DNA from: an uncultured candidatus Brocadiaceae bacterium | GTDB taxonomy: Bacteria > Planctomycetota > UBA1135 > UBA2386 | Direction of reading: 5' to 3' | Length of the DNA stretch: 64,000 nucleotides | Assembly (NCBI GenBank): GCA_964418595.1 | Contig: CAYQMF010000003.1 | Span: 28,630-92,629 of the forward strand | Shown here: piece by piece, positions 6,479 through 35,703 of the stretch | Layout: every line of letters begins with the position of its first letter | Numbering within the stretch: the first letter of the stretch is position 1 | Notes under the pieces: generated by a model | The model's database searches: none | Seen by the model: only the letters and a program-made list of their open reading frames with translations | What the model was told of the DNA's origin: nothing | Program-made: the position numbers and the translations under genes

Positions 6479-6482
6479 CGAT

Positions 6483-9371: not shown

Positions 9372-9376
9372 CGGCA

Positions 9377-9427
9377 GGTTGATTCGCGGAGTCGGTTGAT
9401 TCGCGGAGTCGGTTGATTCGCGGAGTC
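9377..9427. repeat. perfect 17-bp tandem repeat x3 (GGTTGATTCGCGGAGTC)
   Basis: The copies at 9377-9393, 9394-9410 and 9411-9427 are identical. The last copy overlaps the stop codon (9426-9428) of the minus-strand gene. Confidence 0.95.
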
Positions 9428-10763: not shown

Positions 10764-11061
10764 ACGGGGCTCCGCAGCGGGTCGGACAAGGGTTCGGTAG
10801 CTCAGCAGGTGATCGGCTTCGATGCGAGGACAGGCTGAGAGAACACGCTGCGTCCGACCCTATGATCCCCGCCCCCATCGCGGCTGGCGGCCGCAACCCT
10901 TCGGGTTGGATGCGTCGCTGCGCGACGCCGGAAGGGGCCGCCGGCGATCGCTATCGTCGGGGCTTCCAGGGCCGCTCGGGTGTGGCGAATACCACGGGAG
11001 CCGCGAAATCGAGATCTCGCCAGTTTGCGCGCGCCGCGACAATCCGCGACCCTTGCAGCCC

Positions 11062-13723: not shown

Positions 13724-13790
13724 CCGGATCCGCCGCCGGAGCACGGGTCGCGTTCGTGCCGCGGTCGTGAGACACTCGCGCGCGCCCCAC

Positions 13791-14507: not shown

Positions 14508-14525
14508 GGCACGTCGACGCGCGGC

Positions 14526-15653: not shown

Positions 15654-15731
15654 TCGGCCGAGCGTGGCCCTGGGCAACCCGGCGGGGCTCCGGTACCCTG
15701 CCGCCCTCCCCGCCGCCCCGCCGCGCTCGCC

Positions 15732-18776: not shown

Positions 18777-18881
18777 GCGCGGGCGGGGCACGTTCGCGAC
18801 GGGTACGGGCAACGTGCAACTCAGTCCGCCCGCACACGCGGCGACCGAGCCACGTTCCCGTCGTGAACGTGCCCGTGCCCA

Positions 18882-18908
18882 GCTCGGTGGCGCTGCGCGC
18901 CACCGAGC
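18882..18908. terminator. 12-bp GC-rich hairpin between convergent genes (bidirectional terminator candidate)
   Basis: GCTCGGTGGCGC-tgc-GCGCCACCGAGC, a perfect stem. There is no clear U tract. Confidence 0.45.
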
Positions 18909-18964
18909 GGAGCCCGAGCCCGAAACCGTGTCCCCTCCCTCCCCCTCTCCCTCTCTGTCCCCCT

Positions 18965-20368: not shown

Positions 20369-20369
20369 C

Positions 20370-23300
20370 TCAGTCGATGTAGAGGAACTCGTTGAGGTTG
20401 AGCGCCACGAGGCACAGGTCGGTGAGCGCCGCGGCCTGGTCGCCGTCGTGTCGGGCGGTCTGCGCCGAGAGGAACGCCGCCGCGCGCGCCCGTTCCCGCT
20501 CATCCGGGCTGCGCTGCAGGGTGATCCGGAACAACTGCTCGATGGCGTCACCGTCGCCGAGGCGCCGCGCGAGATGCCCGGCCTGGTTGCGCATGAAGGC
20601 ATCGTTGAGCATCGCCAGCGCCTGCAGCGGCGTCGTCGTCTCCATGCGCCGGCCGCAGCTCGCGGTGGCATCCGGCGCGTCGAACACCTCGAGCATGGGG
20701 AAGCGCACCGACCGCCGCATGAACACGTACAGGCTGCGTCGCCACGTGTCCGGGCCGTCCTTGGCGTCCTGGTCCCACTTCTTCGTGCTGCCGGTGGCGA
20801 TCGCGTCGGGGTGCATGCGCGGCATGACGCTGCGCCCACCGACGGTGGGGTTGAGGCAGGCGCTGGCCACGAGCACCGCATCGCGGATCGACTCGGCATC
20901 GAGGCGCATCACTTCGCGCCGGTGCCAGAGACGGTTGCTCGGATCCTCGGCCGCGTCCGCACGGTGCGCACTGGCCTGCCGATAGAGGGCGCTGGTGACG
21001 ATCAACCGATGGATGGGCTTGGTTCGCCAGCCGCCGGCGATCAGGCGCTGCGCCAGCCACTCGAGCAGCTCCTGGTGCGTCGGCGCATCGCCCTGGATGC
21101 CGAAATCGTTGGGCGTGCCCACGAGACCGCGGCCCATGTGCTGCTGCCAGATGCGGTTGACGATGACGCGGGCCAGCAGGCTGCCGGCGCCGTGCTCCAC
21201 GTCGGTGAGCCAGCGCGCCAGCGCCGCGCGACGGCCGGTGGTCTCCGCCTTGGCGGGGGGCTCCGCGTAGAACGCCGCCTGCGCGGCGCGCGGCGTGAGC
21301 ACCTGGAGGAACCCGGGCTCCAGCTCCTCGCGCTTGTCGTTCGGATCGCCGCGGCCGAGCAGGAAGGCCTTCGCCGGCGCGCTGCCGCGGTCGGTCATGA
21401 TCAGTGCCGTCGGCACCTCGGGCTTGTCGCGGTGCGGCACGGCCAGCGCCCGCATCTCGGCGCGTTCGTCCTCGGTGAGCGCGGCGCGCGCGAAGCGGTC
21501 CGAGATCGCGAGCGTGTCCGCGTGCGCAGCGAGGAGGGCATCGCGTTGCGTCGTGATCGCGGCGCGCAGCGTCGACTCCGCCAGCGCCGTCCGCGCGACC
21601 GGCACCACGTCGAGCAACTGGGCGCCGACCGTCTGCCGGCAGTGCACGGCGAGGAGGTTGGGGCCCTGCCGCAGCGCGGCGCGCCCGGCCGGCGTCGGAG
21701 TCAGGACCACGTAGTCGGTCGTGTAGCCCTGTCCCTGCGCGGCGAGCACGCCGTTGACGAACACCTCGACGTCCTCGTCGTGGTAGGCGACGAAGGTCAA
21801 CGCCGCTGGATCGCCTTCCCACTGGAACGAGCGTCGGGCCCAGACGTCGGGCCCGGTCCACGGCGTTGCGATCCGCACGTCGTCACGCCCGGCGCCGAAC
21901 GGAGCTTCGCCCTCCGGCCAGCCCGCGTCATCGAACGTCGGCGTCATCCACGTCTCGTCGGGCCGCGAGAACGTGAATCGCCACCGGCGCGCCGGGTCGA
22001 ACTCGCTCGCCAGCAGCGCGCAGGATGCGGCGTCGAGACCGAGCGCCTGCGCGCGCTGGGCGCGCACGCGCGCGCGACCGCGCGCCAGCACCGCGTCGCG
22101 CTGCGCGCGCAGCGTCTTCTCGTCCGCGTCCCGTTGGCGCTTGTCCTCTTCCCGGGCGGCCACGGTCGCCGCGTCGGCGAGCGGGTACACCACGCGCTGG
22201 CTGGTGCTGAACGCCGCCACCAGCCGGTAGTAGTCGCGCGTCGGGATGGGATCGAACTTGTGGTCGTGGCAGCGCGCGCAACCCACCGTGAGTCCGAGGA
22301 ACGCCGAGCCGAGCGTGCTCACCACGTCGTCGTACTCGTCGTAGCGCGTCTGCTCGTTCTCCTGGTTGTCGACGGTCGGGCCGGCGCACAGGAACCCCGT
22401 CGCACGCCACGCGCGCGGGTCGTCGGGCCGGAGTTCGTCGGCCGCCACCTGCAGGCGGACGAACTCGTCGAAGGGCAGGTCAGCGTGGAAGGCCTCGATC
22501 ACGAAGTCGCGGTACGGCCATGCCTGCGGCCGCTCGTGGTCGAACTCGTACCCGCCGCTGTCGGCGTAGCGGGCGACGTCGAGCCACCAGCGCGCCTGCC
22601 GCTCGGCGAAGTGCGGCCCGGCCATCAGGTCGTCGACCAGCCGCGCGAAGGGGTCGGGCCCCGGGGTCGCGACGTACGCCGCGAACTGCTCCGGCGTCGG
22701 TGGCAGCCCGATCAGCGTGTGGTAGGCACGCCGCACCAGCGTGCGTGCGTCGGCCTCCGGGCTCGGCGCGATCCCGGCCGCGTCGAGGCGCGCGATCCAG
22801 AAGCGGTCGAGGTCGTTGCGTGCGCGTTCCGGTGCGGTGATCGCAGGTGGGACCGGCTCCCCGAGCGGCACGAACGACCAGAACGCGCGGTCGGCGTCGG
22901 TCACCTGCATCTCGCCAGCCGCGCCCTTGGCCTTCGCCTCGGGCGGCACGACCAGCGAGCGCGGGTACGGGGCGCCCGCTTCGATCCACGCGCGCAGCGC
23001 GGCGCGCTCCGCGGCCACGAGCTGCGCCTTGCGCAGCGGCATGAACGGCTTGCGCGCGTGCTCGACCACGGCCAGCAGGAGGCTCGTGTCGGGATCGCCG
23101 GGGACGACTGCCGGCCCCTTGCTCCCGCCCTGCAGCAAGGTCGCGCGCTCGGTCAGGTCGAGGTCGGACTTGCGCCGCGCCGGGTTGTGGCAGGCGACGC
23201 AGTGCTGCTCGAGGATCGCCAGCGGATCCTGGGCGGGGAGCAGCGCACCGAAGCCGACGGCGAGGTGGAGAAAGCGACGCATGGTCTGCGCGCAGACCAT
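20370..23300 (-). CDS. PSCyt1/PSCyt2/PSD (DUF1549-DUF1553, planctomycete cytochrome c) protein with an inserted jelly-roll sugar-binding-like module
   Basis: N-terminal CVACHNP heme motif after a signal peptide, and RCHDHKFDP (DUF1549/1553 hallmark). The alternative start is the ATG at 23282 (MRRFLHL...). Confidence 0.9.
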   Translation of the reverse strand: MVCAQTMRRFLHLAVGFGALLPAQDPLAILEQHCVACHNPARRKSDLDLTERATLLQGGSKGPAVVPGDPDTSLLLAVVEHARKPFMPLRKAQLVAAERAALRAWIEAGAPYPRSLVVPPEAKAKGAAGEMQVTDADRAFWSFVPLGEPVPPAITAPERARNDLDRFWIARLDAAGIAPSPEADARTLVRRAYHTLIGLPPTPEQFAAYVATPGPDPFARLVDDLMAGPHFAERQARWWLDVARYADSGGYEFDHERPQAWPYRDFVIEAFHADLPFDEFVRLQVAADELRPDDPRAWRATGFLCAGPTVDNQENEQTRYDEYDDVVSTLGSAFLGLTVGCARCHDHKFDPIPTRDYYRLVAAFSTSQRVVYPLADAATVAAREEDKRQRDADEKTLRAQRDAVLARGRARVRAQRAQALGLDAASCALLASEFDPARRWRFTFSRPDETWMTPTFDDAGWPEGEAPFGAGRDDVRIATPWTGPDVWARRSFQWEGDPAALTFVAYHDEDVEVFVNGVLAAQGQGYTTDYVVLTPTPAGRAALRQGPNLLAVHCRQTVGAQLLDVVPVARTALAESTLRAAITTQRDALLAAHADTLAISDRFARAALTEDERAEMRALAVPHRDKPEVPTALIMTDRGSAPAKAFLLGRGDPNDKREELEPGFLQVLTPRAAQAAFYAEPPAKAETTGRRAALARWLTDVEHGAGSLLARVIVNRIWQQHMGRGLVGTPNDFGIQGDAPTHQELLEWLAQRLIAGGWRTKPIHRLIVTSALYRQASAHRADAAEDPSNRLWHRREVMRLDAESIRDAVLVASACLNPTVGGRSVMPRMHPDAIATGSTKKWDQDAKDGPDTWRRSLYVFMRRSVRFPMLEVFDAPDATASCGRRMETTTPLQALAMLNDAFMRNQAGHLARRLGDGDAIEQLFRITLQRSPDERERARAAAFLSAQTARHDGDQAAALTDLCLVALNLNEFLYID

Positions 23301-23337
23301 ACCGGGTGATCGCGACGGTGTCCGTCAGCCGGTCGAC

Positions 23338-24387
23338 TCACCAGCGCAACAAGAGCAGCTCCGTGCAGAAGCCGGGTCCCATGGCGAGCATCACGCCGTA
23401 CGCCCCGGGCGGCGGCGGCGCGGCCAACGTGTCGGCGAGGATGAGGAGCACCGACGCGCTCGACAGGTTTCCGACACCGGCGAGGTTGCGCCAGCTCGCC
23501 TGCACGGCATCGGCATCGAGGTCCAGCGCCGCCTGCAGGGCCTCGAGGACCTTGGGGCCGCCGGGGTGACAGATCCACCGCGCGATGTCGGTTCGTGCCA
23601 GCCCCTGCGCGCGAAGGAACGCGTCGACGTCGCCGCCGAGGCGCTCGCGCGCGATCGTCGGCACGGCGGGGGAGAGCACGATGCTGAAGCCGTGCTCGCC
23701 GATCCGCCAGCCCATCGCATCCTCCGTGTCTGGATAGAACACCGAGCGCGTGGCCAGGACACGGGGCCCGGCGGCTGCCGGGTGGTCGGCGCCGACGACG
23801 ATGGCGGCGCACGCACCATCGCCGAAGAGACCCGTCGAGATGATGTTGGCGACGGAGAGGTCGTTCCGCTGCAGGGTCAGCGAGCAGAGTTCGATCGTGA
23901 GCACGACCGCGGCGTGGCCGGGGAACGCACGCACGTAGTCGGCGGCGCGGGCCACGGCGGCGGCACCCGCGACGCAGCCCAGGCCGAACATCGGCGTGCG
24001 CTTGATGTCCGGGCGGAACCCGAGCCGATTCACCAGCCGGGCGTCGATGGACGGGCTGGCCAGCCCGGTGACGGTCGAGAAGAAGATCGCATCGACGTCA
24101 CGCGCGCGGAGCCCCGCGGTTGCGAGCGCATCGCCAACCGCCTGCTCCCCCAGATCGGTGGCGGCCGCGATCCATGCGTCGTTGCAGCGCGTGAAGGTCG
24201 TGAGGTCGTCGTAGGCCTCGATCGGCAGGGCCAGGTGGCGGCCTTGCACTTGCACGCTCGCGTGCAGGCGATCGATGCGACTCGCCATCTGCGGCTCGTG
24301 CGTCCAGACCTTGCGCAGGTACGCGGTGAGGGTCGCCTGCGGGTAGTAGTGCCGAGGCAGGGCGCGGCGGGCGGATGCGATTCTCAT
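23338..24387 (-). CDS. type III polyketide synthase (chalcone/stilbene synthase superfamily; alkylresorcinol/alkylpyrone synthase-like)
   Basis: Catalytic triad contexts MFGLGCVAG (Cys), WICHPGGPKVL (His) and GVGNLSSASVL (Asn). 349 aa from the internal ATG at 24387, which overlaps the upstream stop (ATGA). Confidence 0.95.
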   Translation of the reverse strand: MRIASARRALPRHYYPQATLTAYLRKVWTHEPQMASRIDRLHASVQVQGRHLALPIEAYDDLTTFTRCNDAWIAAATDLGEQAVGDALATAGLRARDVDAIFFSTVTGLASPSIDARLVNRLGFRPDIKRTPMFGLGCVAGAAAVARAADYVRAFPGHAAVVLTIELCSLTLQRNDLSVANIISTGLFGDGACAAIVVGADHPAAAGPRVLATRSVFYPDTEDAMGWRIGEHGFSIVLSPAVPTIARERLGGDVDAFLRAQGLARTDIARWICHPGGPKVLEALQAALDLDADAVQASWRNLAGVGNLSSASVLLILADTLAAPPPPGAYGVMLAMGPGFCTELLLLRW

Positions 24388-25118
24388 GAGCGTCGGGGCA
24401 GGGTGGGCAGGAAGTACGCGGTGCGCGCGCGATACGCGAGGAACGCCTCGCCGTACCGGGTCAGGTAGCGACGCTCCTTGAGCAGCGGGCCCAGCACACA
24501 GTAGAGCGTCCAACCGACGGCGAGGATGAATCGATCCAGGGTCCAGGTGGGCGCGGTCCACAGCACGAGGGCGAAGGCCAGGTAGATCGGTTGCCGGCAC
24601 ATGGTGAACGTCCCGCGCTGGGCGAAGCTCGGGTACCGCGGGGTCCGGCCGCGGAACACGGCGGCCCAGCCGACGAAGCCGGTCTGCACGCCCATGCCGC
24701 CGTCGAAGATCGCCTTGACCAGGAACAGCCACGCGAGCGCGAAGGCCGCGGCGTGCACGACGAGCCAGGCCCCATCGGGTCGCCACAGGACCGGCCCCAG
24801 CGGTGACCAGACCCAGAACGTCACCAGCAACTGGAGCGAGGCGACCGTCGCGTAGCTGGTGGTGACGAGGTGTCGGCCGTGCGGCGCGGGGAACAGCCGG
24901 GCCAGCAGGCGGCCGCCCCCGCGGCCGAGCAGCGCCGAGTGCAGCAAGGGGAAGGCGGCGACGAGGGCGAGGTCGGCCGCGAGCGCGGCTGCGCCGTGCA
25001 GGACCCCGCGCCCGAGCGCGAGTCCGGTCCACAGCGCCGCCGCCATGCTGGCGATGGCGGCCGCGAACAGCGCGTGGTTCAGGACGCCGAAGGCCAGCGC
25101 CAGCCAGCGCACTCTCAT
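24384..25118 (-). CDS. isoprenylcysteine carboxyl methyltransferase (ICMT)-family membrane methyltransferase (SrsB/BpsB-like)
   Basis: 244-aa polytopic membrane protein with a C-terminal RQPIYLAF...GPLLKERRYLTRYGEAFLAYR signature. GAAGGAGG lies 4 nt before the ATG at 25118. It overlaps the PKS start. Confidence 0.8.
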   Translation of the reverse strand: MRVRWLALAFGVLNHALFAAAIASMAAALWTGLALGRGVLHGAAALAADLALVAAFPLLHSALLGRGGGRLLARLFPAPHGRHLVTTSYATVASLQLLVTFWVWSPLGPVLWRPDGAWLVVHAAAFALAWLFLVKAIFDGGMGVQTGFVGWAAVFRGRTPRYPSFAQRGTFTMCRQPIYLAFALVLWTAPTWTLDRFILAVGWTLYCVLGPLLKERRYLTRYGEAFLAYRARTAYFLPTLPRRS

Positions 25119-25837
25119 GCCGCCTCCTTCACGAACAGGCCCGCGTAGGCGATGGCGAGGCTGCTGCTTCGACGCAGATGGATCGCGCCGGTGCGCAGGG
25201 TTGCCACGAACCTGGGCGCTTCGCCCTCGAGGTGCGCGCAGCGCAGCCGGTGCTGCGCGGCGACCGCGCACAGTTCCGCAGGCGTGACGAAGAGAGCGGG
25301 ATCGTGCGTGCCGCGGGGCACGAGCCCGACACCCTCCGCCAGCCGCACCGCGAGCCAACGCGCCCGCCACGTGCGGTTGATCGTGTTCACATACAGCCGG
25401 CCACCGGGGCGGAGCAGGCGCGCCGCGGTGGCGATTGCCGCGGGCCACGTCGGCAGGTGTTCCAACACGTCGGCCAGCAACACGAGATCGAAGGCCCCGT
25501 CCGGCAACGGACACGCGTGGAGATCGGCACACACGAACTGCGCCGTCGTGCTCGCGTGCGGCGCAGCGGCGCGCAGACTGCCGCGGCTGACGTCCACGCC
25601 GACGACCCTGGCCCCGGCGCGCGCGAGCGGAATCGCGAGGAGGCCGCCGCCGCAACCGAGATCGGCGACATCGGCGCCGACGAGCGATGCGCCCACGTGC
25701 GCACGCAGCCAGCGCAACCGGTGGTCGGTGATGGCGCGCAGCGAGGCGAACGTCTTGTCCGTCGCGTCCCACCAGCCTGCCGCGTGCCGCTCGTAGATCG
25801 ACAGGTCGTTGCGCGGTGCGACGTGATGTGACGCCAT
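25115..25837 (-). CDS. class I SAM-dependent methyltransferase (UbiG-like O-methyltransferase)
   Basis: Motif I VADLGCGGGLLAIPLA, plus DLVLLADVLEHL and LLRPGGRLYVNTINRT. The stop overlaps the downstream start (ATGA). Confidence 0.85.
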   Translation of the reverse strand: MASHHVAPRNDLSIYERHAAGWWDATDKTFASLRAITDHRLRWLRAHVGASLVGADVADLGCGGGLLAIPLARAGARVVGVDVSRGSLRAAAPHASTTAQFVCADLHACPLPDGAFDLVLLADVLEHLPTWPAAIATAARLLRPGGRLYVNTINRTWRARWLAVRLAEGVGLVPRGTHDPALFVTPAELCAVAAQHRLRCAHLEGEAPRFVATLRTGAIHLRRSSSLAIAYAGLFVKEAA

Positions 25838-25842
25838 GGCGC

Positions 25843-26265
25843 TCAATCGCCCACCCGCCGGAACACGATCTGGCCGTCGTCCGTGCTCATGCGGACGTGC
25901 CCCGGCGCCGCCGCAAGGCTCGCGGGCTCGGCGTCGACGCCCAGCGTGATCCTGCCGTCCGCGATCCGGTACTCGCCGGCCAGCGTCTGGAAGGTCGGCA
26001 GGCCGTTCTCGAGCACCAGCGCCGCCCCGGTGAAGCGACCGCCCGTCGCGAAGTGGTAGTAGACCTTCCACATCGCGTGCGCGATGGCACCGTCGATCTG
26101 CACCGACTCGTACAGCCCCTCCAGCGTCGCGGGCACCGGCGCGTCGAAGGTCAGCCTCGCCGGCGCGGCGGCGATCGCGCGATCCTCGGCGGCCACGACG
26201 TTGGAGGGGATGCACCCCGACGGCAGCGCCGCCGCCAGGAGTGTCAGCGCGCGTAGGTTCCTCAT
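25843..26265 (-). CDS. small hypothetical lipoprotein
   Basis: Signal sequence MRNLRALTLLAAALPSGC with an imperfect lipobox. The ATGA overlaps the upstream gene, and there is a 5-nt gap to the downstream gene. Confidence 0.6.
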   Translation of the reverse strand: MRNLRALTLLAAALPSGCIPSNVVAAEDRAIAAAPARLTFDAPVPATLEGLYESVQIDGAIAHAMWKVYYHFATGGRFTGAALVLENGLPTFQTLAGEYRIADGRITLGVDAEPASLAAAPGHVRMSTDDGQIVFRRVGD

Positions 26266-27371
26266 CGGCCCGCTTCCGTGGCTTCGCCCAGCGAGCGTGC
26301 CTGCAGCGCGATCCAGATCTTCACCTCGGGCTGCATGCTGATCACGCCGAGCTGGCTCGGCACCGGCACGCCGTAGTCGGGGAGCGAGATCGTCGCCTCA
26401 CCCTCGGCGTGCACGCGCTGGCTCTCGTCCACGCGCAGGCGCACGGGCATGGCCACGGCGCGCGTCTGTCCGCGGATGGTCAGCTTGCCGCGGACCGTGC
26501 CCTGTGTCGTCCTTGCGTCCGCGTCGACCTTCGCGTCGCCCATCGCCTCGACGACGAACGCGATCTCCCTGTGGTCGGTGGTGGCGAGATGCTGGCGCAT
26601 CGCCTCGTTGCGGCCGGCGAGACCCGTGTCGAGTGCGTCGGCCTGGACGCGGATCGCGCCGGTGCACGCCGCCTCCGGGTCGGCGAGATCGAGCGTGACG
26701 GTGCCCGTCAGGGAGGACGTGACGCCGGTGAAGTCGTGCAGCGTGCTCTTCGCATCGAATCCGACGCGCGAGAGGCTCGGCAGGATCTCGAGGCGTTGCC
26801 GGCCGGCGAAGCGGAAGGACTCCGAGGGCAGGGTGAAGGCGAACGCCGAGCGTCGTCGTGGCGGCGCCACCGGCGTCGCGGCCACCGGTTGCGAGGGCGG
26901 CGTGACGATGATGTCGATGGCGGGGTCGGCCACACCTTGCGGCGCGGTGACAGGAGGGGCGACGGGAGGTGTCGCGGTGAGGCGGGTCGCGGACTCGGCG
27001 ATGGCGTCGCGGATCGCGCGTTGACCGCTCGCGAGTGCAGCTACCTCCCTGGCCAGCGCGGCTTGCGCGCCGTGTGCCTGGGCGAGATCGCGGGCGATGG
27101 CTTCGGCGCGCGTCGTCGCTCCCTCTTCCATGGTGTCGGTCACGTGCTGGATCCCCGCAGTCAGCGCCGCGGCGAGAGCGCGGACGTCGCGCTGGATCTG
27201 GCCGATCTCGTCGCGGAGCTGTGCCGTCGCCTGCAGCGCGGGATCCTGGGCGAGGTCCGGCGACACGACGACGCGGACCCGATCGTGCAAGACGGCGAGC
27301 CCGGCTGCGGTGCCGCCCGCGAGCGTCAGCAGCGCGAGGAGGCCGAACCACGCGAGCAGAGTCTTTCGCAT
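26262..27371 (-). CDS. membrane-anchored coiled-coil / Pro-rich linker / YceI-like domain protein
   Basis: N-terminal TM segment (LLAWFGLLALLTLAGG), then about 110 aa of heptad-like Ala/Gln/Arg-rich sequence and a PPVAPPVTAP linker. The C-terminal YceI-like region has VGFDAKSTLHDFTG, GKLTIRGQTRAV and a terminal beta strand KIWIALQA. Confidence 0.75.
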   Translation of the reverse strand: MRKTLLAWFGLLALLTLAGGTAAGLAVLHDRVRVVVSPDLAQDPALQATAQLRDEIGQIQRDVRALAAALTAGIQHVTDTMEEGATTRAEAIARDLAQAHGAQAALAREVAALASGQRAIRDAIAESATRLTATPPVAPPVTAPQGVADPAIDIIVTPPSQPVAATPVAPPRRRSAFAFTLPSESFRFAGRQRLEILPSLSRVGFDAKSTLHDFTGVTSSLTGTVTLDLADPEAACTGAIRVQADALDTGLAGRNEAMRQHLATTDHREIAFVVEAMGDAKVDADARTTQGTVRGKLTIRGQTRAVAMPVRLRVDESQRVHAEGEATISLPDYGVPVPSQLGVISMQPEVKIWIALQARSLGEATEAGR

Positions 27372-27403
27372 CCTGCGCCCCTGGCAAACCCGATGCCGGT
27401 CCG

Positions 27404-27418
27404 GCAGTGCCCGTGCCG
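27404..27418 (-). promoter_or_regulatory. candidate sigma-54 (-24/-12) promoter for the YceI-lipoprotein-MT-MT-PKS operon
   Basis: The minus strand reads CGGCACG-GGCA-CTGC against the consensus TGGCACG-N4-TTGC, with correct GG-N10-GC spacing. The predicted +1 is about 21 nt upstream of the ATG at 27371. Confidence 0.4.
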
Positions 27419-27460
27419 TGCGGCGCGGCAGGCGCATGGCGCCGGGCCGGCTGGTAGGAC

Positions 27461-27486
27461 TTGCACGACCTTTGCAGATCCTGCAA
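27461..27486. promoter_or_regulatory. three phased YTGCA motifs (candidate activator binding site / UAS)
   Basis: TTGCAC-gacc-TTTGCAG-atcc-CTGCAA. The TGCA cores at 27462, 27473 and 27482 are 11 and 9 bp apart and lie between the two sigma-54-like motifs. Confidence 0.3.
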
Positions 27487-27550
27487 CGAGCCGGCCCCGC
27501 TCGACCCGGCGCGCCGCGGCCGCACGCGGCCGAGCTGGCGCGCGGCGGGC

Positions 27551-27566
27551 CGGCACGGCGCGTGCT
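27551..27566 (+). promoter_or_regulatory. candidate sigma-54 (-24/-12) promoter for the MMPL-flavoprotein-YceI-kinase operon
   Basis: CGGCACG-GCGC-GTGCT with correct GG-N10-GC spacing. The predicted +1 (about 27577) is only 2 nt before the ATG at 27579, so the mRNA would be leaderless. This is a weakness of the call. Confidence 0.35.
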
Positions 27567-27578
27567 TGGCGCCGGGCG

Positions 27579-29540
27579 ATGCTGTTCCCCTCCACGCGTC
27601 GCGGGGCCTGGCTGCTGCTGCTGGCGTTGGGCGTGCCGACTGCGTGGCTCGCCCACGTGCAGGCGGGCACGCCCATCGACCCTCGCAACCGGGCGATGAA
27701 GTCGGCGACAGGAGCCGACGCTGCCGCGATCGCGCGCCGGGTCGCCTTGTTCGGTGACGATCGTGCCTTGCTCGCGGGCTTCCACCCTCGCTCGCCGGAC
27801 CTCACGTTCGCGCCCGCCGACGCCGAGCTGCTTGCGCGGCTGGCCCGCACGGTGGGCGGGGTCGACGGTGTGCATCGCGTGGAGCAGATCCCGGCTCCGA
27901 CCGCCAGCGAGCGCCTGTGGCTGATCCACCTGGCCGCGGCCAACGGCGGCGCGGGCGACGAACTCGTCGTCGCGACCGTCGAGGGCAAGCTGCGCGAAGG
28001 TTGCCCCACTCACCTCGCCGTCGACTTCACGGGCCTGCCGGCCGTCGAGGCCGCGATCGCCGCGGCGGTCACCACGGAGCAGCGCCAGATCGTGCCGGCG
28101 ATCGCCGGTGCGCTCTTCGTCCTGCTCGCGGTTCTCTTCCGCAGCGTCGGTGCCGCCGTCGCGGCCATGCTCCCGGCCGGGATCGCGATCGCATGCGCTG
28201 GCGGGGTCTTCGCGCTGACCGGGCACCGGCTCGATCCCGTCGCCGGGCTGTTGCAGCCCGTGCTGCTCACGGTCGGCGTCGCGTACTCGGTGCACGTCGT
28301 CGAGGGGTGTCGTGCGCGCGCCGCCCGCATGGGTCCGGGGCAAGCCGTGCGTCGCACGGTGCGGGATCTCCTCGAACCGAGTCTCCTCGCGACGGGGACG
28401 ACCGTGCTCGGCCTGATCGTCAACGCGCTGAGTCCCATCCCTTCCGTCGTCGACTTCGCGGTGTACGCGGGCTTCGGCGTGGCGGTCGGGATGGCCGCCG
28501 TGTTCTGGGTCTCGCCGGCCGTCCTGCTCGCCTGGCCGGGTGCGCTCGCCGCTCGGCCCCGCGGTAGCCCGACGCGGGCGCGGGGCCTGACTGGGTTTTC
28601 GCGGCGACACGCCGCCAGCATCCTCACCGGCAGCGTGTTGAGCCTGGGCTTCGCCGTCGATGCGTGCCTGCGCCTGACGGTGGACAACGACCCGTTGCGC
28701 ATCCTGCCGGCTGCGCACGGGCTGCGCGTGGAGACGGAACGGCTCGCCGGTCGGCTCGGCGGGGTGGAGCCCTTCGATGTCCTGGTGCCGGCGGGAAGCG
28801 CGCTGATGGAGCCTGCGGCGTTGCGGATGCTCGCCGCGGATCTCGGCAGCCGCGCGGGCGTGGTCGGCCTCGCCGGGCCACCGATCCAGGCCGCCACCGG
28901 CGACGTCCTCCTCCGCGCCATCCTGCCGCGCGCCGGCAGCACGGAGCGCGGCCGGGTCTTCGACGACTTCGAGCGCAGCCTGCGTTGCGCAGGGCATCCG
29001 GAGGTCCTGGTCACTGGCTCGGCGGTGCAGGTCGCGCGCGACTCCAATCGCCTCGTCGCCGGCCAGATCGGCAGCCTGGCGATCACGCTGGTCGTGCTGT
29101 TCGTGGCGATGCTGTTCGGCCTCCGCTCGTTCCGCCTGAGCTGCATCGGGCTGGCGCCGAGTGTCCTGACCAGCCTCGTCGTGTACGGGACGCTCGGCGC
29201 GCTGCATCGGCCGCTCTCGGTCGCCACCGCGCTGATCGGGTCGGTGATGCTGGGGCTGATCGTCGACACGACGATCCACCTGCTCGTGCGCTTCCGGCGC
29301 GCCCGCGCGCACGGGGCGACGCGCGCGGCAGCGGTGGCGAGCGCGCTGGCCCGCGCCGGGCGTGCGGTCGTGTTGACCAGTCTCGTCCTCGGCACCGGCT
29401 TCTCCGTGGCCGGGTTCGGGCGGTTGTCGACCACGGCCGAGTTCGGCCTCCTGGCCGCGCTGACGATCGGCGTTGCCGCGGTGGTCTCGCTCCTGCTCGT
29501 GCCCGCGCTGCTGCTCGTGCGCGAAGGAGGCCGGCGATGA
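27579..29540 (+). CDS. MMPL / RND-superfamily membrane exporter
   Basis: 653 aa from the internal ATG, in frame with track ORF 26241..29540. Topology is TM1, a periplasmic domain, a 5-TM bundle, a second periplasmic domain and a 5-TM bundle, as in MMPL/HpnN-type lipid exporters. Confidence 0.8.
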   Translation: MLFPSTRRGAWLLLLALGVPTAWLAHVQAGTPIDPRNRAMKSATGADAAAIARRVALFGDDRALLAGFHPRSPDLTFAPADAELLARLARTVGGVDGVHRVEQIPAPTASERLWLIHLAAANGGAGDELVVATVEGKLREGCPTHLAVDFTGLPAVEAAIAAAVTTEQRQIVPAIAGALFVLLAVLFRSVGAAVAAMLPAGIAIACAGGVFALTGHRLDPVAGLLQPVLLTVGVAYSVHVVEGCRARAARMGPGQAVRRTVRDLLEPSLLATGTTVLGLIVNALSPIPSVVDFAVYAGFGVAVGMAAVFWVSPAVLLAWPGALAARPRGSPTRARGLTGFSRRHAASILTGSVLSLGFAVDACLRLTVDNDPLRILPAAHGLRVETERLAGRLGGVEPFDVLVPAGSALMEPAALRMLAADLGSRAGVVGLAGPPIQAATGDVLLRAILPRAGSTERGRVFDDFERSLRCAGHPEVLVTGSAVQVARDSNRLVAGQIGSLAITLVVLFVAMLFGLRSFRLSCIGLAPSVLTSLVVYGTLGALHRPLSVATALIGSVMLGLIVDTTIHLLVRFRRARAHGATRAAAVASALARAGRAVVLTSLVLGTGFSVAGFGRLSTTAEFGLLAALTIGVAAVVSLLLVPALLLVREGGRR

Positions 29541-30772
29541 GCGGTGCCCGTGCAGACGTCGACGTGGCCATCGTCGGTGGCGGACCCGCCGGCGCGTCGC
29601 TGGCGATGCGGCTCGGGCGGGCCGGCCTGCAGGTGCTCGTGCTCGAGAAGAAGCGGTTCCCGCGCTTCAAGCCGTGCGGCGAGTTCATGAGTCCGGAGTG
29701 CCTGCCGATCCTCGCCGGCCTCGGGGTGGGGGAAGACGTCGCCGCGCTGGGCGTGCGGCGCGTGGGCGGCATGGAGTTGCATGGCTACGAGCGGCGGGCC
29801 GAAGGTCACTTCGCGCCCGTGGGGGAGACGCCGGCGCCGGCGCCCTTCGGCTGGGCTGTCCGGCGGGAGCGGTTCGACGCCGTGCTGCTCGCCGCGGCCG
29901 CGGCGACCGACGGCGTGACGGTGGCGGAGCGGGCGACCGTCGATGGGCTCGTGCGCGATGCGCGCGGCGTGGTGCGGGGTGTCGTAGTGCGCGAAGGCGA
30001 GGGCCAGCGCGAGGTGCGCGCGCGCTGCGTGATCGGCGCCGATGGCGTTCGTTCGCGCGTTGCGCGGGATCTCGGGGTGCAGCGCCCGGTGCCCTGGCTG
30101 CAGCGCGTCGCGTTGACGACGCGCTACGCGGGCGTCACGCCGCGTGCGTGCGCCGAGGTACACCTGTTCCCCGGTGGGTACTTCGCCGCGACCCCGGTCG
30201 ACGATGGTCTCTTCAGCCTCAACCTCGTGCTCGATCGGGCGGCGGTGCGGGCGCACGACGGGGACTGGGACGCCTTCCTCCGCCGGCACCTGGCTGCCGC
30301 GCCTCTGCTCCGCGATCGGCTCGCCGACGCCGTGCGCGTCGATCCGGTGCGCGGCTGCGGTCCGCTCGCGATGTCGACGACGCGGCAGGTGGCCGACGGC
30401 GCCGCGCTGGTCGGCGACGCGTGCGGGTACGTCGACCCGATCACCGGCGAGGGCGTGTTCTTCGCCCTGCGCGGTGCGCAGCTGCTGGCGCCGATCCTGG
30501 TGGACGCGCTGGCCGGCGGTCGCGCCGACCGGCGCTCGCTGCGCGCCTACGCGCACGCCCGCCGCGCCGAGTTCGGGCCGCGCCTGATGTTCGCGCGGCT
30601 CCTGCAGCGCGGCCTGCGCCATCCGTGGCTCGTGGCCGGCGCGCTGTCGCTACTGGCGGCCCGGCCACGCCTCGCCGACCTCCTGGTGGCGATCACCGGC
30701 GACTACGTACCGGGCCGTGAGCTGTTGCGGCCGGCGGTGTGGTGGCGCGCGCTGCGGGGAGTACCGGCATGA
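29537..30772 (+). CDS. FAD-dependent oxidoreductase, geranylgeranyl reductase / aromatic hydroxylase-like family
   Basis: DVAIVGGGPAGASLAMRL (GxGxxG), GADGVRSRVARDLG and LVGDACGYVDPITGEG. The ATG overlaps the MMPL stop (ATGA). Confidence 0.85.
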   Translation: MSGARADVDVAIVGGGPAGASLAMRLGRAGLQVLVLEKKRFPRFKPCGEFMSPECLPILAGLGVGEDVAALGVRRVGGMELHGYERRAEGHFAPVGETPAPAPFGWAVRRERFDAVLLAAAAATDGVTVAERATVDGLVRDARGVVRGVVVREGEGQREVRARCVIGADGVRSRVARDLGVQRPVPWLQRVALTTRYAGVTPRACAEVHLFPGGYFAATPVDDGLFSLNLVLDRAAVRAHDGDWDAFLRRHLAAAPLLRDRLADAVRVDPVRGCGPLAMSTTRQVADGAALVGDACGYVDPITGEGVFFALRGAQLLAPILVDALAGGRADRRSLRAYAHARRAEFGPRLMFARLLQRGLRHPWLVAGALSLLAARPRLADLLVAITGDYVPGRELLRPAVWWRALRGVPA

Positions 30773-31446
30773 GCGAGCGTCGCGTGGCAGCGCTCGCGCT
30801 GTTGCCCGCCTTCGTCATGACCGCGGTGCTCGTGCTCCACGAGATCCGGCGGCCTGGCCTCGAGCCGGTCGCTGGTTCGCAGGCTCCGACGATCACGTTG
30901 CCGCGACTCCCGGTACCGCGGCTTCGGAGCGGGACGTACGTCGCGTACGATGGCCGGCTGGCCATCTCCGTGCAGGATGCCTTCGACGAACAGATCGTGG
31001 TCGACGACGCGGTGACCATCACGCTGGACCTGGGTGCCGACCGGCGCCCGACGGCGGTCGACATCGCCGTCGACCTCCTGCCGTTTTGCGCGGGGGCCTC
31101 CGACCCCTGGCAGGGCGAGGCGGTGTACGCGCTCCTCGATGCGGGTGCGTTGCGGCAGGCGCGCTTCCTCAGTGAGTCCATCACGACGTCGACGACGACT
31201 GTCGACGGTGTGGATCGCCTGCGCTGCCTCGGCAACCTGACCCTGCACGGCGAGGTGCGGCGCACGATCCTCGATCTGTGTCTCGGCGCCGAGCGCAAGG
31301 ACCGGGCGCGGATGGTGGGGGATCTGGATCTCGATACGCGCGCGTTCGGTCTGCCGGCGAGCTGGCGCTTCGGCGTGGTGCGGCTCGACCCGATCGTGCA
31401 CGTCCGTCTCGACGCCGCCCTCACGCAGCGGCGGAAGGACGACTGA
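30769..31446 (+). CDS. hypothetical membrane-anchored protein, weakly YceI-like
   Basis: N-terminal TM segment (VAALALLPAFVMTAVLVL). The C-terminal GNLTLHGEVRRT...FGLPASWRFGVVRLDPIVHVRLDA resembles the YceI C-terminal strands. The ATGA overlaps the upstream gene, and the stop directly abuts the next start. Confidence 0.5.
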   Translation: MSERRVAALALLPAFVMTAVLVLHEIRRPGLEPVAGSQAPTITLPRLPVPRLRSGTYVAYDGRLAISVQDAFDEQIVVDDAVTITLDLGADRRPTAVDIAVDLLPFCAGASDPWQGEAVYALLDAGALRQARFLSESITTSTTTVDGVDRLRCLGNLTLHGEVRRTILDLCLGAERKDRARMVGDLDLDTRAFGLPASWRFGVVRLDPIVHVRLDAALTQRRKDD

Positions 31447-33003
31447 GTGGCCGGTTCCGACCGCGTCACCCGCCAGGATCGCCGCCTGTCCATCGCCGGA
31501 CAGATGCGGTGGATCGTTGTCATCCTGCTCGCCCTCGTCCTCGGGATGCTCGGCATCGTCGTCGTCGAGGTGCACGGCATCCGGGTCGATCTGCGCCGCG
31601 TCGCAGAGGAGAGACGCGAGGCCGAACTCGCCCAGGCGCTCGTGCTCGACGTCCGCGGCTTCCAGCGGGTGGTCCGGCTGCGCGCCACGAGCGACGTCCC
31701 GGCCGACGCGACGCTGGGAGCACGCGATCAGGTCGGGCACATCGAGGAGGCGATCGCGACCCTCGATCGACTGTCGGCGCCCTCGCAGGACGATCCGTCG
31801 GAGCGTTCGCACGAGGCGGCAGAGACGAGGACGCGCGCGGAGCTGCGGGATCTGCTGCAGCGGGCGCGCATCGCCACCGCGACCGGAGAGGTGAGCGCGC
31901 CGGAGTGGGCGGAGCACGCGGCCACGATGTGTCGCATCGCCGAGTCGCTGGCGATGGAGATCGGCCGTGAAGCGCACGCCGCCAGCCTCGACCTGGATGC
32001 CCGCGGTGGCAGCCTCATGCGCCTCGTGGGCCTGCTCGCGATCGGCGCGGTCTCGCTCCTGATCGCCATCTGCCTGTATGTGCAGCGGCGTGTCGTGCAG
32101 CCGTTGCGCGAGTTGCGCGAGGGCGCGCGGCATATCGGACGCGGTCGCCTGGACCATCCCCTGGCCGAAGTCGGCGGCGCCGAGATCGTCGACCTCGGGC
32201 GTGAGATCAAGGCGATGGCGCGCCAGCTCGCGAGCCACAACGAGGACCTGGCGGCGCGCGTCGAGCAGCGCACGCGTGAACTGATCCGGACTGCGCGGTT
32301 CGCGGACCTCGGCGCGCTAGCGGCGGGGCTGGCGCACGAGATCAACACGCCGCTGGCGTCGATCAGCGCCTGTGCCGAAGGTCTGCTGCGCCGCGGCGCC
32401 AAGAGCCGGCGGCTCGACGACGCGGAGCGCGAATACCTGGAGACCATCGGCCAGGAGGCGGAGCGCGTGCACGAGATCGCGGCGCGCCTGCTCGAGATCG
32501 GCCGCAGCGACTCGCCGGCGCTTGGGCCGGTGGATGTCGCCGCGGCGATTCGCGCGGCGGTGACCCTGTCGCGGCACCGATTCGAAGGGGCGTCGGTGCG
32601 CCTGGTCGCGGAGATCCAGTCCGAGCTGCCGGAGATCGTGAGCAACCCGCAAGAACTGCGGCAGGTGTTGCTCAACCTGCTGAACAACGCCCTCGACGTG
32701 AGCTCGCCGGGCAAGCGCGTGCGGGTGTGCGCCGAGCGGATCGGTTCCGAGGTCGTCGTCGATGTCGACGACGAAGGGCCGGGCGTGCCGCCAGATCTCG
32801 TCGACCGGGTCTTCGAGCCGTTCTTCACGACCAAGGCGGTGGGGCAGGGAACCGGCCTCGGCCTGGCGATCGTGCAGCGCATCGTGGAGCGGCACGGCGG
32901 CCACATCGAGATCGTGGATCGCAAGCCCGGCGCGCGCTTCCGCGTTCGCTTCGCCGTGGCGGAGGACGATCAGTCGGCGCGGTCGACGGCCAGCCGGTTG
33001 TAG
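31447..33003 (+). CDS. sensor histidine kinase (2 TM, periplasmic helical sensor, HAMP, HisKA, HATPase)
   Basis: H-box LAAGLAHEINTPLASI, N-box LLNLLNNALD, and G-boxes DDEGPGVP and GTGLGLAIV. GTG start at 31447. Confidence 0.85.
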   Translation: MAGSDRVTRQDRRLSIAGQMRWIVVILLALVLGMLGIVVVEVHGIRVDLRRVAEERREAELAQALVLDVRGFQRVVRLRATSDVPADATLGARDQVGHIEEAIATLDRLSAPSQDDPSERSHEAAETRTRAELRDLLQRARIATATGEVSAPEWAEHAATMCRIAESLAMEIGREAHAASLDLDARGGSLMRLVGLLAIGAVSLLIAICLYVQRRVVQPLRELREGARHIGRGRLDHPLAEVGGAEIVDLGREIKAMARQLASHNEDLAARVEQRTRELIRTARFADLGALAAGLAHEINTPLASISACAEGLLRRGAKSRRLDDAEREYLETIGQEAERVHEIAARLLEIGRSDSPALGPVDVAAAIRAAVTLSRHRFEGASVRLVAEIQSELPEIVSNPQELRQVLLNLLNNALDVSSPGKRVRVCAERIGSEVVVDVDDEGPGVPPDLVDRVFEPFFTTKAVGQGTGLGLAIVQRIVERHGGHIEIVDRKPGARFRVRFAVAEDDQSARSTASRL

Positions 33004-34313
33004 AGCGTCTTCAGCGAGATCCCCACCGCCTCCGCTACGCGCTTCTTGTCGCCGTCGAAGCGCTCCATCGCCGCCTGGATCGCCAGGCGTTCGAGCTCGG
33101 CGGCGTTCAACGTGGGGAGTTCCTGGCGGCCGGCGCGGGCGCGGGCCAGGACGAACGTGTCGACGTGCTCGGCCTCGATGCGGTCACTGCCGACCATCGT
33201 GGCGAGGCGGGTGATGGCGTTCTGCAGCTCGCGCACGTTGCCCGGCCACGCATGGCCCTGCAGGCGAGCCAGCGCCGCCGGGGTCAGGACCATGGCGCGT
33301 CCCTGCCGGTGCGCGCAGCGCTCGAGGAACCTCGTCGCGAGCAGCGGGATGTCGGCGCTGCGGTCGCGCAACGCCGGCACCGCGAGTTCGAGCGTGGCGA
33401 GGCGGTAGTAGAGGTCTTCGCGGAAGGCGCCCTCGCGCATGAGCACGTGCAGGTCGCGGTTGGTCGCGCAGACCACGCGCACGTCGACGGTGCGCGTGCG
33501 GTCGTCGCCGACCGGTCGGATCTCGCCGAACTGAACCGCCCGCAGCAGTGCCGGCTGCAACTCGCGGGGCAGGTCGCCGATCTCGTCGAGGAACAGCGTG
33601 CCCCGGTGCGCGGCCTCGAACAGGCCGACCCGGGCCCGATCCGCCCCGGTGAACGCGCCCTTGGCGTGACCGAAGAGTTCGCTGTGCACGAGGTTGTCGG
33701 CGATCGCGCCGCAGTTCACCACCACGAAGCTCTCGTCGCATCGCGGGCTCATCGCGTGCACGGCGCGCGCGATCAGCTCCTTGCCCGTACCGTTCTCACC
33801 GAGGATGAGGACGCTGTCGTCGCTGGCGGCGACACGTGCGAGGCTGGTGCGCAGCTCGCGCATGCCGACGCTCTCGCCGACGATGTCGGGGTCTACCGTC
33901 GCTGAGTTGGCGCGACGCAGCCGCGCGTTCTCCTCGCCGAGGCGGCGGTGTTCGCAGGCGCGGCGCAGGGTCTGCTCGAGGATCGCGGTCCGCGTCGGCT
34001 TCTGCAGGAAGTCGTACGCGCCGCCCTGCATGGCGCGGACGGCGTCGGCGACGCTGCCGTGGCCGGTCAGCACCACGACGGGGACTGCGGGCTCGGCACC
34101 GTGCAGCGTCGCCAGCGCCTGATGGCCGTCGACGCCCGGCATCTTCAGGTCGAGCAGCACCACGTCCGGTCGATCGGCGAGCACGCGCGCCACGAGATCG
34201 CGGGCATCGGCGGCGGTGGTGACCGAGAAGCCCAGGTCGGTCAGCTCCCGCGACAGCACCCGGCGCAGCGTGGCATCGTCGTCGACGACCAGGACCTTGG
34301 GGTCAGGCGGCAC
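32970..34313 (-). CDS. sigma-54-dependent response regulator (NtrC family bacterial enhancer-binding protein)
   Basis: Receiver (VLVVDDD...LLDLKMPG...KP), AAA+ Walker A GENGTGKE, GAFTGA loop, Walker B LFLDEIG, and a C-terminal HTH. The GTG at 34313 is my choice and is uncertain. The 3' end overlaps the kinase gene by 34 nt. Confidence 0.9.
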   Translation of the reverse strand: MPPDPKVLVVDDDATLRRVLSRELTDLGFSVTTAADARDLVARVLADRPDVVLLDLKMPGVDGHQALATLHGAEPAVPVVVLTGHGSVADAVRAMQGGAYDFLQKPTRTAILEQTLRRACEHRRLGEENARLRRANSATVDPDIVGESVGMRELRTSLARVAASDDSVLILGENGTGKELIARAVHAMSPRCDESFVVVNCGAIADNLVHSELFGHAKGAFTGADRARVGLFEAAHRGTLFLDEIGDLPRELQPALLRAVQFGEIRPVGDDRTRTVDVRVVCATNRDLHVLMREGAFREDLYYRLATLELAVPALRDRSADIPLLATRFLERCAHRQGRAMVLTPAALARLQGHAWPGNVRELQNAITRLATMVGSDRIEAEHVDTFVLARARAGRQELPTLNAAELERLAIQAAMERFDGDKKRVAEAVGISLKTLYNRLAVDRAD

Positions 34314-34503
34314 GGGCGCGATCGTCGGCCAACCACTCGGCGCGGACAAGCGTCGCCATGCAACCTCGATCGACGACGTCAGGGGTCCGCGTCGGTCGGT
34401 GTCCGGACCCCGGGCGAGGAAACCGATGCGAGACGTGCGCCCCGCGCACATGAGTGTCGCCAAGTCCTTGCGCCCGGTGACGGCAGCGGTACCCACTTCC
34501 CGC

Positions 34504-35703
34504 ATGCTCCGCCTCGCACCGCGCGCGTCGCTCCCCTGGCTCGCCGTGTCCCTCGCCGCCCAGGCCGCGTGGCGCGACCTTCCGGAGCGCGCCCCCGACG
34601 GGGTGATCAGCAACACCGGCGCGTTCATCATCGGCAAGAAGCAGAAGACCGACTGGGTCCGACCGGCGTTCCGCTACGACGCCCGCGTCGCCAGCGGCCG
34701 CAAGCGCGCCAAGGTGGTGGTCGTGATCTACGACCCGATCCTGGAAGCGCACGCGGGCAAGACCCTGCGCGCGCACGTGGGTGGCAACGACCCGCGCCAC
34801 TTCTCGCGCATCCTGGTCGACGTGATCCGGCAGGCGAGCTGGGGCTACATCGACTACGAGATCGTCGACATCCTCGAGATCGACGGCTTCCCCAAGAAGG
34901 TCGACGGCTTCCGCTACACCGACGAGTCGTTCCTGGCGGTGCGGCAGACCCAGCAGTGGCAGCCAGCCACGACGTCGTATCGCTGTGTGCTCGAGGAGAA
35001 CGGGCTCATCGAGCGCTTCCGCAAGGAGGGCATCACGGAGCTGTGGCTGTGGGGTGCGTCGGGGATGCACTTCGACGAGTTCGCGGGCTACATCCCCAAC
35101 CGCTACGCGCGCTTCGGTCCCACCGACAACCCGTGGCTGTATCGGCCGTACGACATCCCCCCCGAACTCGGCCGGACCACGTGGGTGATGGGCTTCAACT
35201 ACGAGGTCGGCGCCGACAACATGGTGCACAGCTACACGCACCGCGTGGAGAGCATGGCGGCGCTCGCCTTCGCCGACGGCATCTGGGATCCCAAGACCCG
35301 CCGCGACCCGTGGAACGTGTTCTCGTGGCTCGAGATGGACACGCCCGGCACGCCGTCGATGGTCGGCAACTGCCACGTGCCACCCAACGGCGAGAAGGGC
35401 TACGACTACGCCAACCCGCGCGTCGTGCGATCATGGAGCGACAACTGGGCGCGCTACCCCGACCTGCGCGGCGACCCGCGCGGCGTGTCGAGCCTGGATT
35501 GGGGCGGCACCCAGTTCGGCTACCAGAAGTGGATCCTCGAGCGGCTGCCGAAGGGGCCGGGGTACACGACCTTCGGCTACGACAACTGGTGGGTGTACGT
35601 GGCGAACACCGACGAGGATCTGCCCGACCTCGCGCAGCGAGACCCCTCGGCCGGGCCCGGCGCCTTCACGCTGCCGGAGGGGTTGCCGGCGGTCGGGCGC
35701 TGA
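34504..35703 (+). CDS. secreted protein of unknown function
   Basis: Signal peptide MLRLAPRASLPWLAVSLAAQAAW. The 399-aa product is Trp/Tyr/Asp-rich and globular-looking, with strong coding bias. I recognise no family. Confidence 0.65.
   Translation: MLRLAPRASLPWLAVSLAAQAAWRDLPERAPDGVISNTGAFIIGKKQKTDWVRPAFRYDARVASGRKRAKVVVVIYDPILEAHAGKTLRAHVGGNDPRHFSRILVDVIRQASWGYIDYEIVDILEIDGFPKKVDGFRYTDESFLAVRQTQQWQPATTSYRCVLEENGLIERFRKEGITELWLWGASGMHFDEFAGYIPNRYARFGPTDNPWLYRPYDIPPELGRTTWVMGFNYEVGADNMVHSYTHRVESMAALAFADGIWDPKTRRDPWNVFSWLEMDTPGTPSMVGNCHVPPNGEKGYDYANPRVVRSWSDNWARYPDLRGDPRGVSSLDWGGTQFGYQKWILERLPKGPGYTTFGYDNWWVYVANTDEDLPDLAQRDPSAGPGAFTLPEGLPAVGR

Follow-up and report, generated by a model that had tools for sequence, protein, structure and literature searches.

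A predicted bidirectional sigma-54 control region between the alkylresorcinol synthase and MMPL exporter operons of a planctomycete

A 64,000-nucleotide window of a Planctomycetota genome (contig CAYQMF010000003.1; 71.7% GC) contains a type III polyketide synthase (PKS) locus in which two tightly packed operons diverge from a short spacer. The minus-strand operon encodes a YceI-like protein, a lipoprotein, two methyltransferases and the PKS, and the plus-strand operon an MMPL exporter, a FAD monooxygenase, a small membrane protein and a histidine kinase. The divergent intergenic control region between them comprises 207 bp (27372-27578; 77% GC) and is bounded by the YceI-like start codon (ATG at 27371, minus strand) and the MMPL start codon (ATG at 27579, plus strand). 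Comparison with orthologous spacers indicates that it is very probably a bidirectional sigma-54 control region, in which back-to-back -24/-12 promoters flank two activator dyads. An initial annotation of this DNA had proposed a shared enhancer between divergent sigma-54 promoters, served by an activator and a kinase of the same locus, and footprinting across about 37 syntenic loci supports that arrangement as a prediction. The limits that it set for the spacer are sound, because the N-termini of the YceI-like and MMPL proteins are conserved in homologues, and all of the strings that it quoted are present where it placed them.

The MMPL protein has 14 database homologues, and a scan of species-representative genomes recovered about 33 Planctomycetota loci (L001-L033) in which all ten genes recur in unchanged order. 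Five closer relatives, with 54-68% MMPL identity, were taken from metagenome contigs and fall within the numbering L081-L086; the ten-gene locus is syntenic throughout L001-L033 and L081-L086. The most similar locus of the genome scan is L001 (57% MMPL identity), and the cultured Rohdeia mirabilis Pla163 is among the syntenic loci as L027. In total, 37 orthologous spacers were compared, spanning MMPL identities of 37-68%. When 14 loci are aligned, four blocks only are conserved, namely the two promoters and the two dyads, and the remaining spacer DNA is unalignable. This four-block pattern recurs in 36 of the 37 spacers. Conservation in orthologous loci was a check named by the initial annotation, and both the -24/-12 motifs and the central dyads are indeed kept, with the exception of the particular minus-strand motif that it had selected.

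The sigma-54-type -24/-12 promoter assigned to the MMPL operon lies on the plus strand at 27551-27566 (CGGCACG-GCGC-GTGCT; CGGCACGGCGCGTGCT), and its -12 C at 27565 is 13 nt from the MMPL ATG. This motif had been singled out before, and it withstands comparison: it is aligned with a conserved block in the close relatives, where it is conserved in five of five, and it is found in 35 of 36 other orthologous spacers. The orthologue consensus just 5' of the MMPL gene is yGGCAcG-N4-kTGCw. On the minus strand, a conserved promoter of the same type precedes the YceI/PKS operon at 27383-27398 (CGGCATC-GGGT-TTGCC; CGGCATCGGGTTTGCC), with its -12 C at 27384, 12 nt from the YceI ATG. It coincides with a block shared by L081-L084, which in the close-relative alignment covers window positions 27382-27398 (TGGCAAACCsGrTGCC), and the minus-side orthologue consensus just 5' of the YceI gene is TGGCmCG-N4-TTGCw. 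In the same alignment the retained plus-side string is GGCAyG..CGTGC, and its minus-side counterpart is GGCAyC.GGTTTGCC. In both promoters the GG and GC doublets are exactly 10 bp apart, and each motif (27551-27566, plus; 27398-27383, minus) faces its own gene.

To score such motifs, the GG and GC doublets were fixed and the other ten consensus positions of TGGCACG-N4-TTGCW were counted, up to a maximum of 12. A plus-strand match of at least 9/12 stands beside the MMPL gene in 35 of the 37 spacers. Beside the YceI gene, 32 of 37 spacers carry a match of at least 9/12, and 36 of 37 one of at least 8/12. With a background of 0.30 matches per kb per strand at 9/12 or better, about two spacer matches would be expected by chance. 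Across 687 kb of the compared loci, 27 of the 28 matches scoring at least 11/12 fall within spacers, which make up 1.2% of the DNA, as do 53 of the 88 matches scoring at least 10/12. The sole match of at least 11/12 outside the spacers, at about 18891 (plus strand) in L012 (TGGCACGCGTGATGCT), may be another sigma-54 promoter. Two other strong matches in the window, at 40674 and 16348 (-), were treated as chance; the former lies antisense inside a DUF6807 gene and the latter inside a peptidase gene.

Between the two promoters are two putative upstream activating sequence (UAS) dyads. Dyad 1 occupies 27452-27466 (TGGTAG-GAC-TTGCAC; TGGTAGGACTTGCAC), and dyad 2 occupies 27472-27486 (TTGCAG-ATC-CTGCAA; TTGCAGATCCTGCAA) as a perfect 6-3-6 palindrome. 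Both are 15 bp long and of the form TTGNA-N5-TNCAA, 20 bp apart centre to centre. The initial annotation had described three phased TGCA repeats here. The TGCA motifs are real and conserved (TTGCA/CTGCA at 27461, 27472 and 27481), but they are half-sites of two dyads rather than three equivalent repeats, the first belonging to dyad 1 and the second and third to dyad 2. Dyad 1 aligns with TTGTAG-N3-yTGCAA of the orthologues, and the pair typical of the main clade is TTGTAG-N3-yTGCAA followed by TTGcAc-N3-nGACAA at the same 20-bp spacing. A simple 6-3-6 palindrome search caught only some of the dyads, and a tandem-pattern score was used instead. Because the pattern was derived from the same spacers, the resulting statistics are optimistic: the window spacer scores 14/16, a value reached by none of 300 spacer shuffles, and 17 of 37 spacers score at least 12/16, nearly all with a spacing of 20 bp, as do 3 of the 3178 coding chunks of 220 nt that were scored for comparison. 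An exact TTGNA-N5-TNCAA is found once in the 64 kb, at dyad 2, against 0.01 expected.

Measured between dyad centre and -12 C of the facing promoter, the spacing across the loci falls into classes of 64, 73-75, 83-88 and 94-96 bp. The window has the modal values, 75 bp from dyad 1 to the minus promoter and 86 bp on the plus side. As tandem sites at these distances, the dyads have the number and placing of UAS elements, of which two or more lie about 70-150 bp upstream. A periodicity scan of the comparative distances peaks at 10.5-11.5 bp (p ~0.01 on unique values). The classes are about one helical turn apart, and lineages would therefore have gained or lost roughly whole turns, as is expected of DNA on which an activator must face the polymerase.

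The candidate ligand of the dyads is encoded in the locus itself. The activator carries Pfam PF00072 (REC), PF00158 (Sigma54_activat) and PF02954 (HTH_8), and in the window it has a GAFTGA loop, a Walker A motif (GENGTGKE) and a Walker B motif (LFLDE). All locus activator sequences long enough to cover the region retain a GAFTGA-type loop (GAFTGA, GSFTGA or GAFSGA), which argues indirectly for the presence of sigma-54. Among solved structures, those nearest to it are NtrC-family activators, with 4l4u as the best PDB match (E = 9e-90). The protein remains below the NCBIfam cut-offs for NtrC, ZraR, AtoC and the PEP-CTERM regulator PrsR; in descending order, its best scores are 412, 384, 382 and 343 bits against thresholds of 503, 559, 714 and 760, the last pair being that for ZraR. 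It is thus a member of the NtrC family and not an orthologue of any named regulator, and the earlier claim that an NtrC-family activator and a kinase share the locus is confirmed by the Pfam domains and the GAFTGA loop.

About 30 of 33 loci have kinase and activator beside the cluster. The activator gene is colinear with the kinase gene and follows it within the MMPL operon in about 27 orthologues; L001, L084 and the window have it inverted and outside that operon. The two window genes are convergent, with a 34-bp 3' overlap at 32970-33003. The activator frame appears broken in L020 (14823-15515; a 495-aa product with an unrelated tail) and L026 (~14711-16024; a 265-aa product), and these look like frameshifts, due either to assembly errors or to pseudogenes. 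One locus, L014, retains the biosynthetic and MMPL genes without kinase or activator and has a metalloenzyme-superfamily gene (10840-13032) in their place; its spacer (7430-7647) lacks both -24/-12 motifs and the dyads. Some subclades have tandem dyads of other sequence: CGGTAAG-N-CTTACCG in L028, L031 and L032, TGTCGA-N3-CGACA in L024, and TTTCA-type dyads in L027 and L033. The recognition helix of the activator varies as well (ALKTLYNK, A(T/V)KTLYNK, GLKTLYTK and (S/A)LTTVYNK) and changes along with the dyad variants. Anecdotal as it is, this covariation would fit binding by the locus activator.

From these elements a mechanism can be proposed. Two closed complexes of RNA polymerase and sigma-54 would sit back to back on 27551-27566 (plus) and 27398-27383 (minus). 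On a periplasmic or envelope signal, the periplasm-sensing kinase (31447-33003) would phosphorylate the NtrC-family activator (34313-32970), which would assemble on the dyads at 27452-27466 and 27472-27486 and open both promoters through DNA looping and ATP hydrolysis. Synthesis of alkylresorcinol phenolic lipids by the YceI-like protein, lipoprotein, two methyltransferases and type III PKS would then be co-induced with tailoring and export (FAD monooxygenase and MMPL) and with the kinase itself. Where the activator gene follows the kinase gene in the same operon, as in the roughly 27 colinear orthologues, this would give positive feedback; with the inverted gene of L001, L084 and the window, auto-induction would be confined to the kinase.

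The predicted promoters stand unusually close to their genes. On either side of the spacer, the majority of about 36 loci have 12-14 nt between the -12 C and the start codon (ATG or GTG). Exceptions are L083 and L084 (107-113 nt), the YceI side of L002 and L008 (34 nt), and L010 and L016. By convention, transcription starts 11 nt past the C, at 19 bp from the centre of the motif (PMC4591121). Together with canonical initiation, a gap of 12-14 nt predicts leaders of 1-3 nt and hence nearly leaderless mRNAs, with +1 near 27577 on the plus strand and near 27372 on the minus strand. For the two window promoters, whose gaps are 12 and 13 nt, the predicted leaders measure just 1-2 nt. The initial annotation had entered an almost leaderless MMPL mRNA as a caveat. 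The gap of 13 nt is confirmed, but it is a conserved property of both promoters and not an argument against them. Moreover, the motif is better read as a promoter than as a translation signal, because a few lineages differ in leader length and still conserve it. Quite possibly, though we advance this only tentatively and from sequence comparison, a deep clade of planctomycetes produces mRNAs that are activator-gated and all but leaderless from both divergent sigma-54 promoters. A comparative study has reported few Shine-Dalgarno genes in the single planctomycete that it analysed. Our literature search found no paper on sigma-54-dependent leaderless mRNAs and nothing specific on leaderless mRNAs in planctomycetes.

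Several alternatives have to be weighed against these readings. It is highly improbable that the GG-N10-GC strings arose by chance in DNA of 77% GC, with sigma-70 or extracytoplasmic function (ECF) promoters driving the spacer and the TGCA dyads forming an operator for a repressor or another regulator. The window counts do agree with chance, as the initial annotation had cautioned for GC-rich DNA: GGCACG-N5-TGC occurs three times in 64 kb against 2.8 expected (two of the three inside the 207-bp spacer), TGGCACG-N4-TTGC at two mismatches 20 times against 30 in shuffles, and matches of at least 9/12 number 40. Since motif counts in the window are at chance level, the window alone is not decisive, and the minus-strand motif of that annotation is not conserved. 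It is conservation across orthologous spacers that decides for the plus motif: about 36 diverged spacers keep motif position and orientation but not the flanking sequence, and the top-scoring matches are about 2000-fold enriched in spacers. Furthermore, a scan of the spacer for sigma-70-like promoters and terminators found none, an Rfam scan of 27250-27750 (E up to 1) gave zero matches, and the locus encodes a GAFTGA activator. For the minus promoter, the annotation had chosen CGGCACG-GGCA-CTGC at 27418-27404 (minus strand; CGGCACGGGCACTGC). The string exists, yet it is conserved in no close relative, and the conserved motif lies 20 bp nearer the gene. As the orthologous minus promoter it was rejected, since it aligns with nothing conserved in those relatives; it is probably a chance match and at most a window-specific extra site. 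That it is the minus promoter, with a 21-nt leader, or that both minus motifs act as tandem promoters in this genome, is unlikely. The distal motif does count 9/12 against 8/12 for the proximal one on a simple consensus count, and it would spare YceI a leaderless mRNA. Nevertheless, a 9/12 match is expected by chance in about 6% of cases in a 200-bp spacer, the distal motif is missing from all close relatives while the proximal one is retained, and the spacing of the proximal one, at 75 bp to dyad 1 and 12 nt to the ATG, is the modal one. The site at 27398-27383 is therefore most likely the functional minus promoter.

The remaining alternative accepts sigma-54 promoters but assigns the dyads to an activator other than the protein of 32970-34313, or has that protein act elsewhere. 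We regard it as very unlikely. In its favour, L018 keeps promoters and dyad-like sequence (9700-9940) with no kinase or activator within 10 kb downstream, and the activator gene is inverted outside the operon in three loci. These points are outweighed by the roughly 30 loci out of 33 in which kinase and activator adjoin the cluster, by the dyad variants that track recognition-helix changes, and by the joint loss of kinase, activator and sites in L014. At the corresponding place in L018, the interval 13000-21896 holds an alcohol dehydrogenase-like gene and genes of unknown function. Returning to the bidirectional sigma-54 control region with its locus-encoded activator, a number of observations weigh against it. 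Both window motifs are moderate matches to the consensus (10/12 for plus, 8/12 for minus), the dyad statistics are optimistic for the reason given, and the argument from joint loss comes from the single locus L014. L018, as noted, keeps its promoters with no kinase or activator nearby. Among the ORFs of the 64-kb window there is no rpoN; for the phylum Planctomycetota, sigma-54 regulons have been documented (PMC12316311). Sigma-54 transcripts with leaders as short as 1-3 nt would be unusual. In L002-L009 a GGAG/GAGGG string stands at Shine-Dalgarno distance inside the predicted untranscribed 12-18-nt gap (for example, L003 2101-2116); it may be chance in G-rich DNA or the sign of a second, leadered transcript. 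Lastly, in L001 a 614-aa gene with a weak NIDO-like match (7951-9795, minus strand) is inserted between the YceI and MMPL genes, so that the dyads remain beside the YceI promoter and the MMPL promoter is 2.1 kb away from them; a second dyad pair was sought beside the displaced MMPL promoter, and nothing convincing was found.

Control regions of this type, with divergent sigma-54 promoters and shared activator sites, are already well known. The nearest parallel is the zraP-zraSR system, in which ZraR (HydG) is said to have been shown by Leonhartsberger and colleagues in 2001 to bind inverted repeats between the two promoters. Both systems have one NtrC-family response regulator, divergent sigma-54 promoters, two-component gene(s) in one of the operons and an envelope-related output. 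In the present spacer, too, the central sites would be shared, and the window kinase belongs to the plus operon. In Escherichia coli and Salmonella, ZraR controls the divergent sigma-54 promoters of zraP and zraSR (PMC4987338). The planctomycete locus differs in its activator, which scores 343 bits where a ZraR equivalog must reach 760, and in the dyad sequence. Moreover, a type III PKS phenolic-lipid cluster and an MMPL exporter are involved here, the activator gene of the window is inverted outside the operon, and the start codons abut the promoters.

The NtrC enhancer at glnAp2 is the paradigm for tandem dyads, helical phasing and looping, and NtrC sites are 17-bp sequences of the form TGCACC-N5-GGTGCA. 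The spacer shares with glnAp2 the tandem dyads about 70-150 bp upstream of a -24/-12 promoter, TGCA-containing half-sites and an activator of REC-AAA+-HTH(Fis) architecture. Its sites are not of the NtrC form, and their resemblance in the TGCA cores is partial: the dyads are 15 bp long (TTGNA-N5-TNCAA), with TGCA cores 9 bp apart instead of 13, the activator is below the NtrC equivalog cut-off, and the targets are not nitrogen genes. A third parallel, FhlA at the hyc/hyp operons of enterobacteria, likewise combines one activator and one UAS type for divergent sigma-54 operons (PMC4987338); unlike the activator considered here, FhlA is not a response regulator, its site is CATTTCGTACGAAATG, and the physiology is different.

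For the biosynthetic genes, the closest precedent is the pentacistronic operon of 'Saltatorellus ferox' Poly30, which encodes a lipid/isoprenoid-binding protein, a lipoprotein, two methyltransferases and a type III PKS (PMC10896814). Its gene order is identical to that of the window minus operon. The S. ferox PKS makes alkylresorcinols and methyl-alkylresorcinols in the heterologous host Corynebacterium, and it was only in 2024 that a planctomycete alkylresorcinol type III PKS cluster was linked to its product (PMC10896814). A term search of that paper's text finds no regulators, two-component systems, MMPL proteins or sigma factors. The present analysis describes the divergent MMPL-monooxygenase-kinase operon and the control region of the alkylresorcinol cluster. 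The cluster definition widens accordingly to include an MMPL exporter, a monooxygenase, a kinase and an activator, and the predicted switch, with two promoters and two dyads, is defined to the base pair. It suggests a route to activate the cluster in cultured relatives (Rohdeia mirabilis Pla163 and 'S. ferox'), through a constitutive activator variant or the signal of the kinase. The spacers also offer a natural data set for enhancer-promoter geometry, with about 36 diverged versions whose distances change in steps of about one helical turn. Finally, the conserved 12-14-nt gap that separates start codon from -12 element hints, in a testable way, at leaderless mRNAs driven by sigma-54; if true, it would link enhancer-dependent transcription directly to Shine-Dalgarno-independent translation.

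The genes of the window were called from third-position GC plots and Pfam matches of its open reading frames (ORFs). Reading outward from the spacer on the minus strand, the first gene (26262-27371) encodes a YceI-like lipid/isoprenoid-binding protein with an N-terminal membrane anchor (Pfam PF04264) and is syntenic in L001-L033. It is followed by a putative lipoprotein of 140 aa (25843-26265), which has no Pfam family and corresponds to the S. ferox product described as a 'putative lipoprotein' (PMC10896814), and by a SAM-dependent methyltransferase (25115-25831; Pfam Methyltransf_11/25). The next product (24384-25109) is a membrane methyltransferase-like protein with three hydrophobic segments and no Pfam family; its weak, sub-threshold NCBIfam match is to the methanethiol S-methyltransferase MddA. 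The operon closes with a type III PKS of the alkylresorcinol synthase type (23338-24402; Pfam Chal_sti_synt_N/C), for which the orthologous operon is that of PMC10896814. On the plus strand, the MMPL/RND-family (HAE3-like) transporter (27579-29540; Pfam PF03176 and NCBIfam), whose N-terminus is conserved in the 14 homologues, is followed by a FAD-dependent monooxygenase (29537-30772; Pfam FAD_binding_3) and a membrane-anchored protein of about 225 aa and unknown function (30769-31446), with counterparts of 222-223 aa (255 aa in L086) in L081-L086. The sensor histidine kinase (31447-33003) has two transmembrane segments, a periplasmic domain of about 150 aa, and HAMP, HisKA and HATPase_c domains. 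Convergent with it on the minus strand is the gene of the NtrC-family enhancer-binding response regulator (32970-34313), which comprises REC, sigma-54 AAA+ (with GAFTGA) and HTH_8 domains.

Beyond the locus, a PSCyt1/PSCyt2/PSD1 (DUF1549/DUF1553) gene and a DUF1501 gene (18965-23324, minus strand) begin 14 nt past the PKS stop codon; they show no synteny with the cluster in other loci. Between the activator gene and an RsmB-like methyltransferase gene lies a long ORF (34123-35703, plus strand) with a coding-like GC3 of 0.92 and no Pfam match, and L084 has no counterpart of it at the corresponding place. Other signalling genes of the window (2129-4690, 6168-8999 and 56565-58856) encode a TPR hybrid histidine kinase, a Ser/Thr protein kinase, and an OmpR-type response regulator with a kinase.

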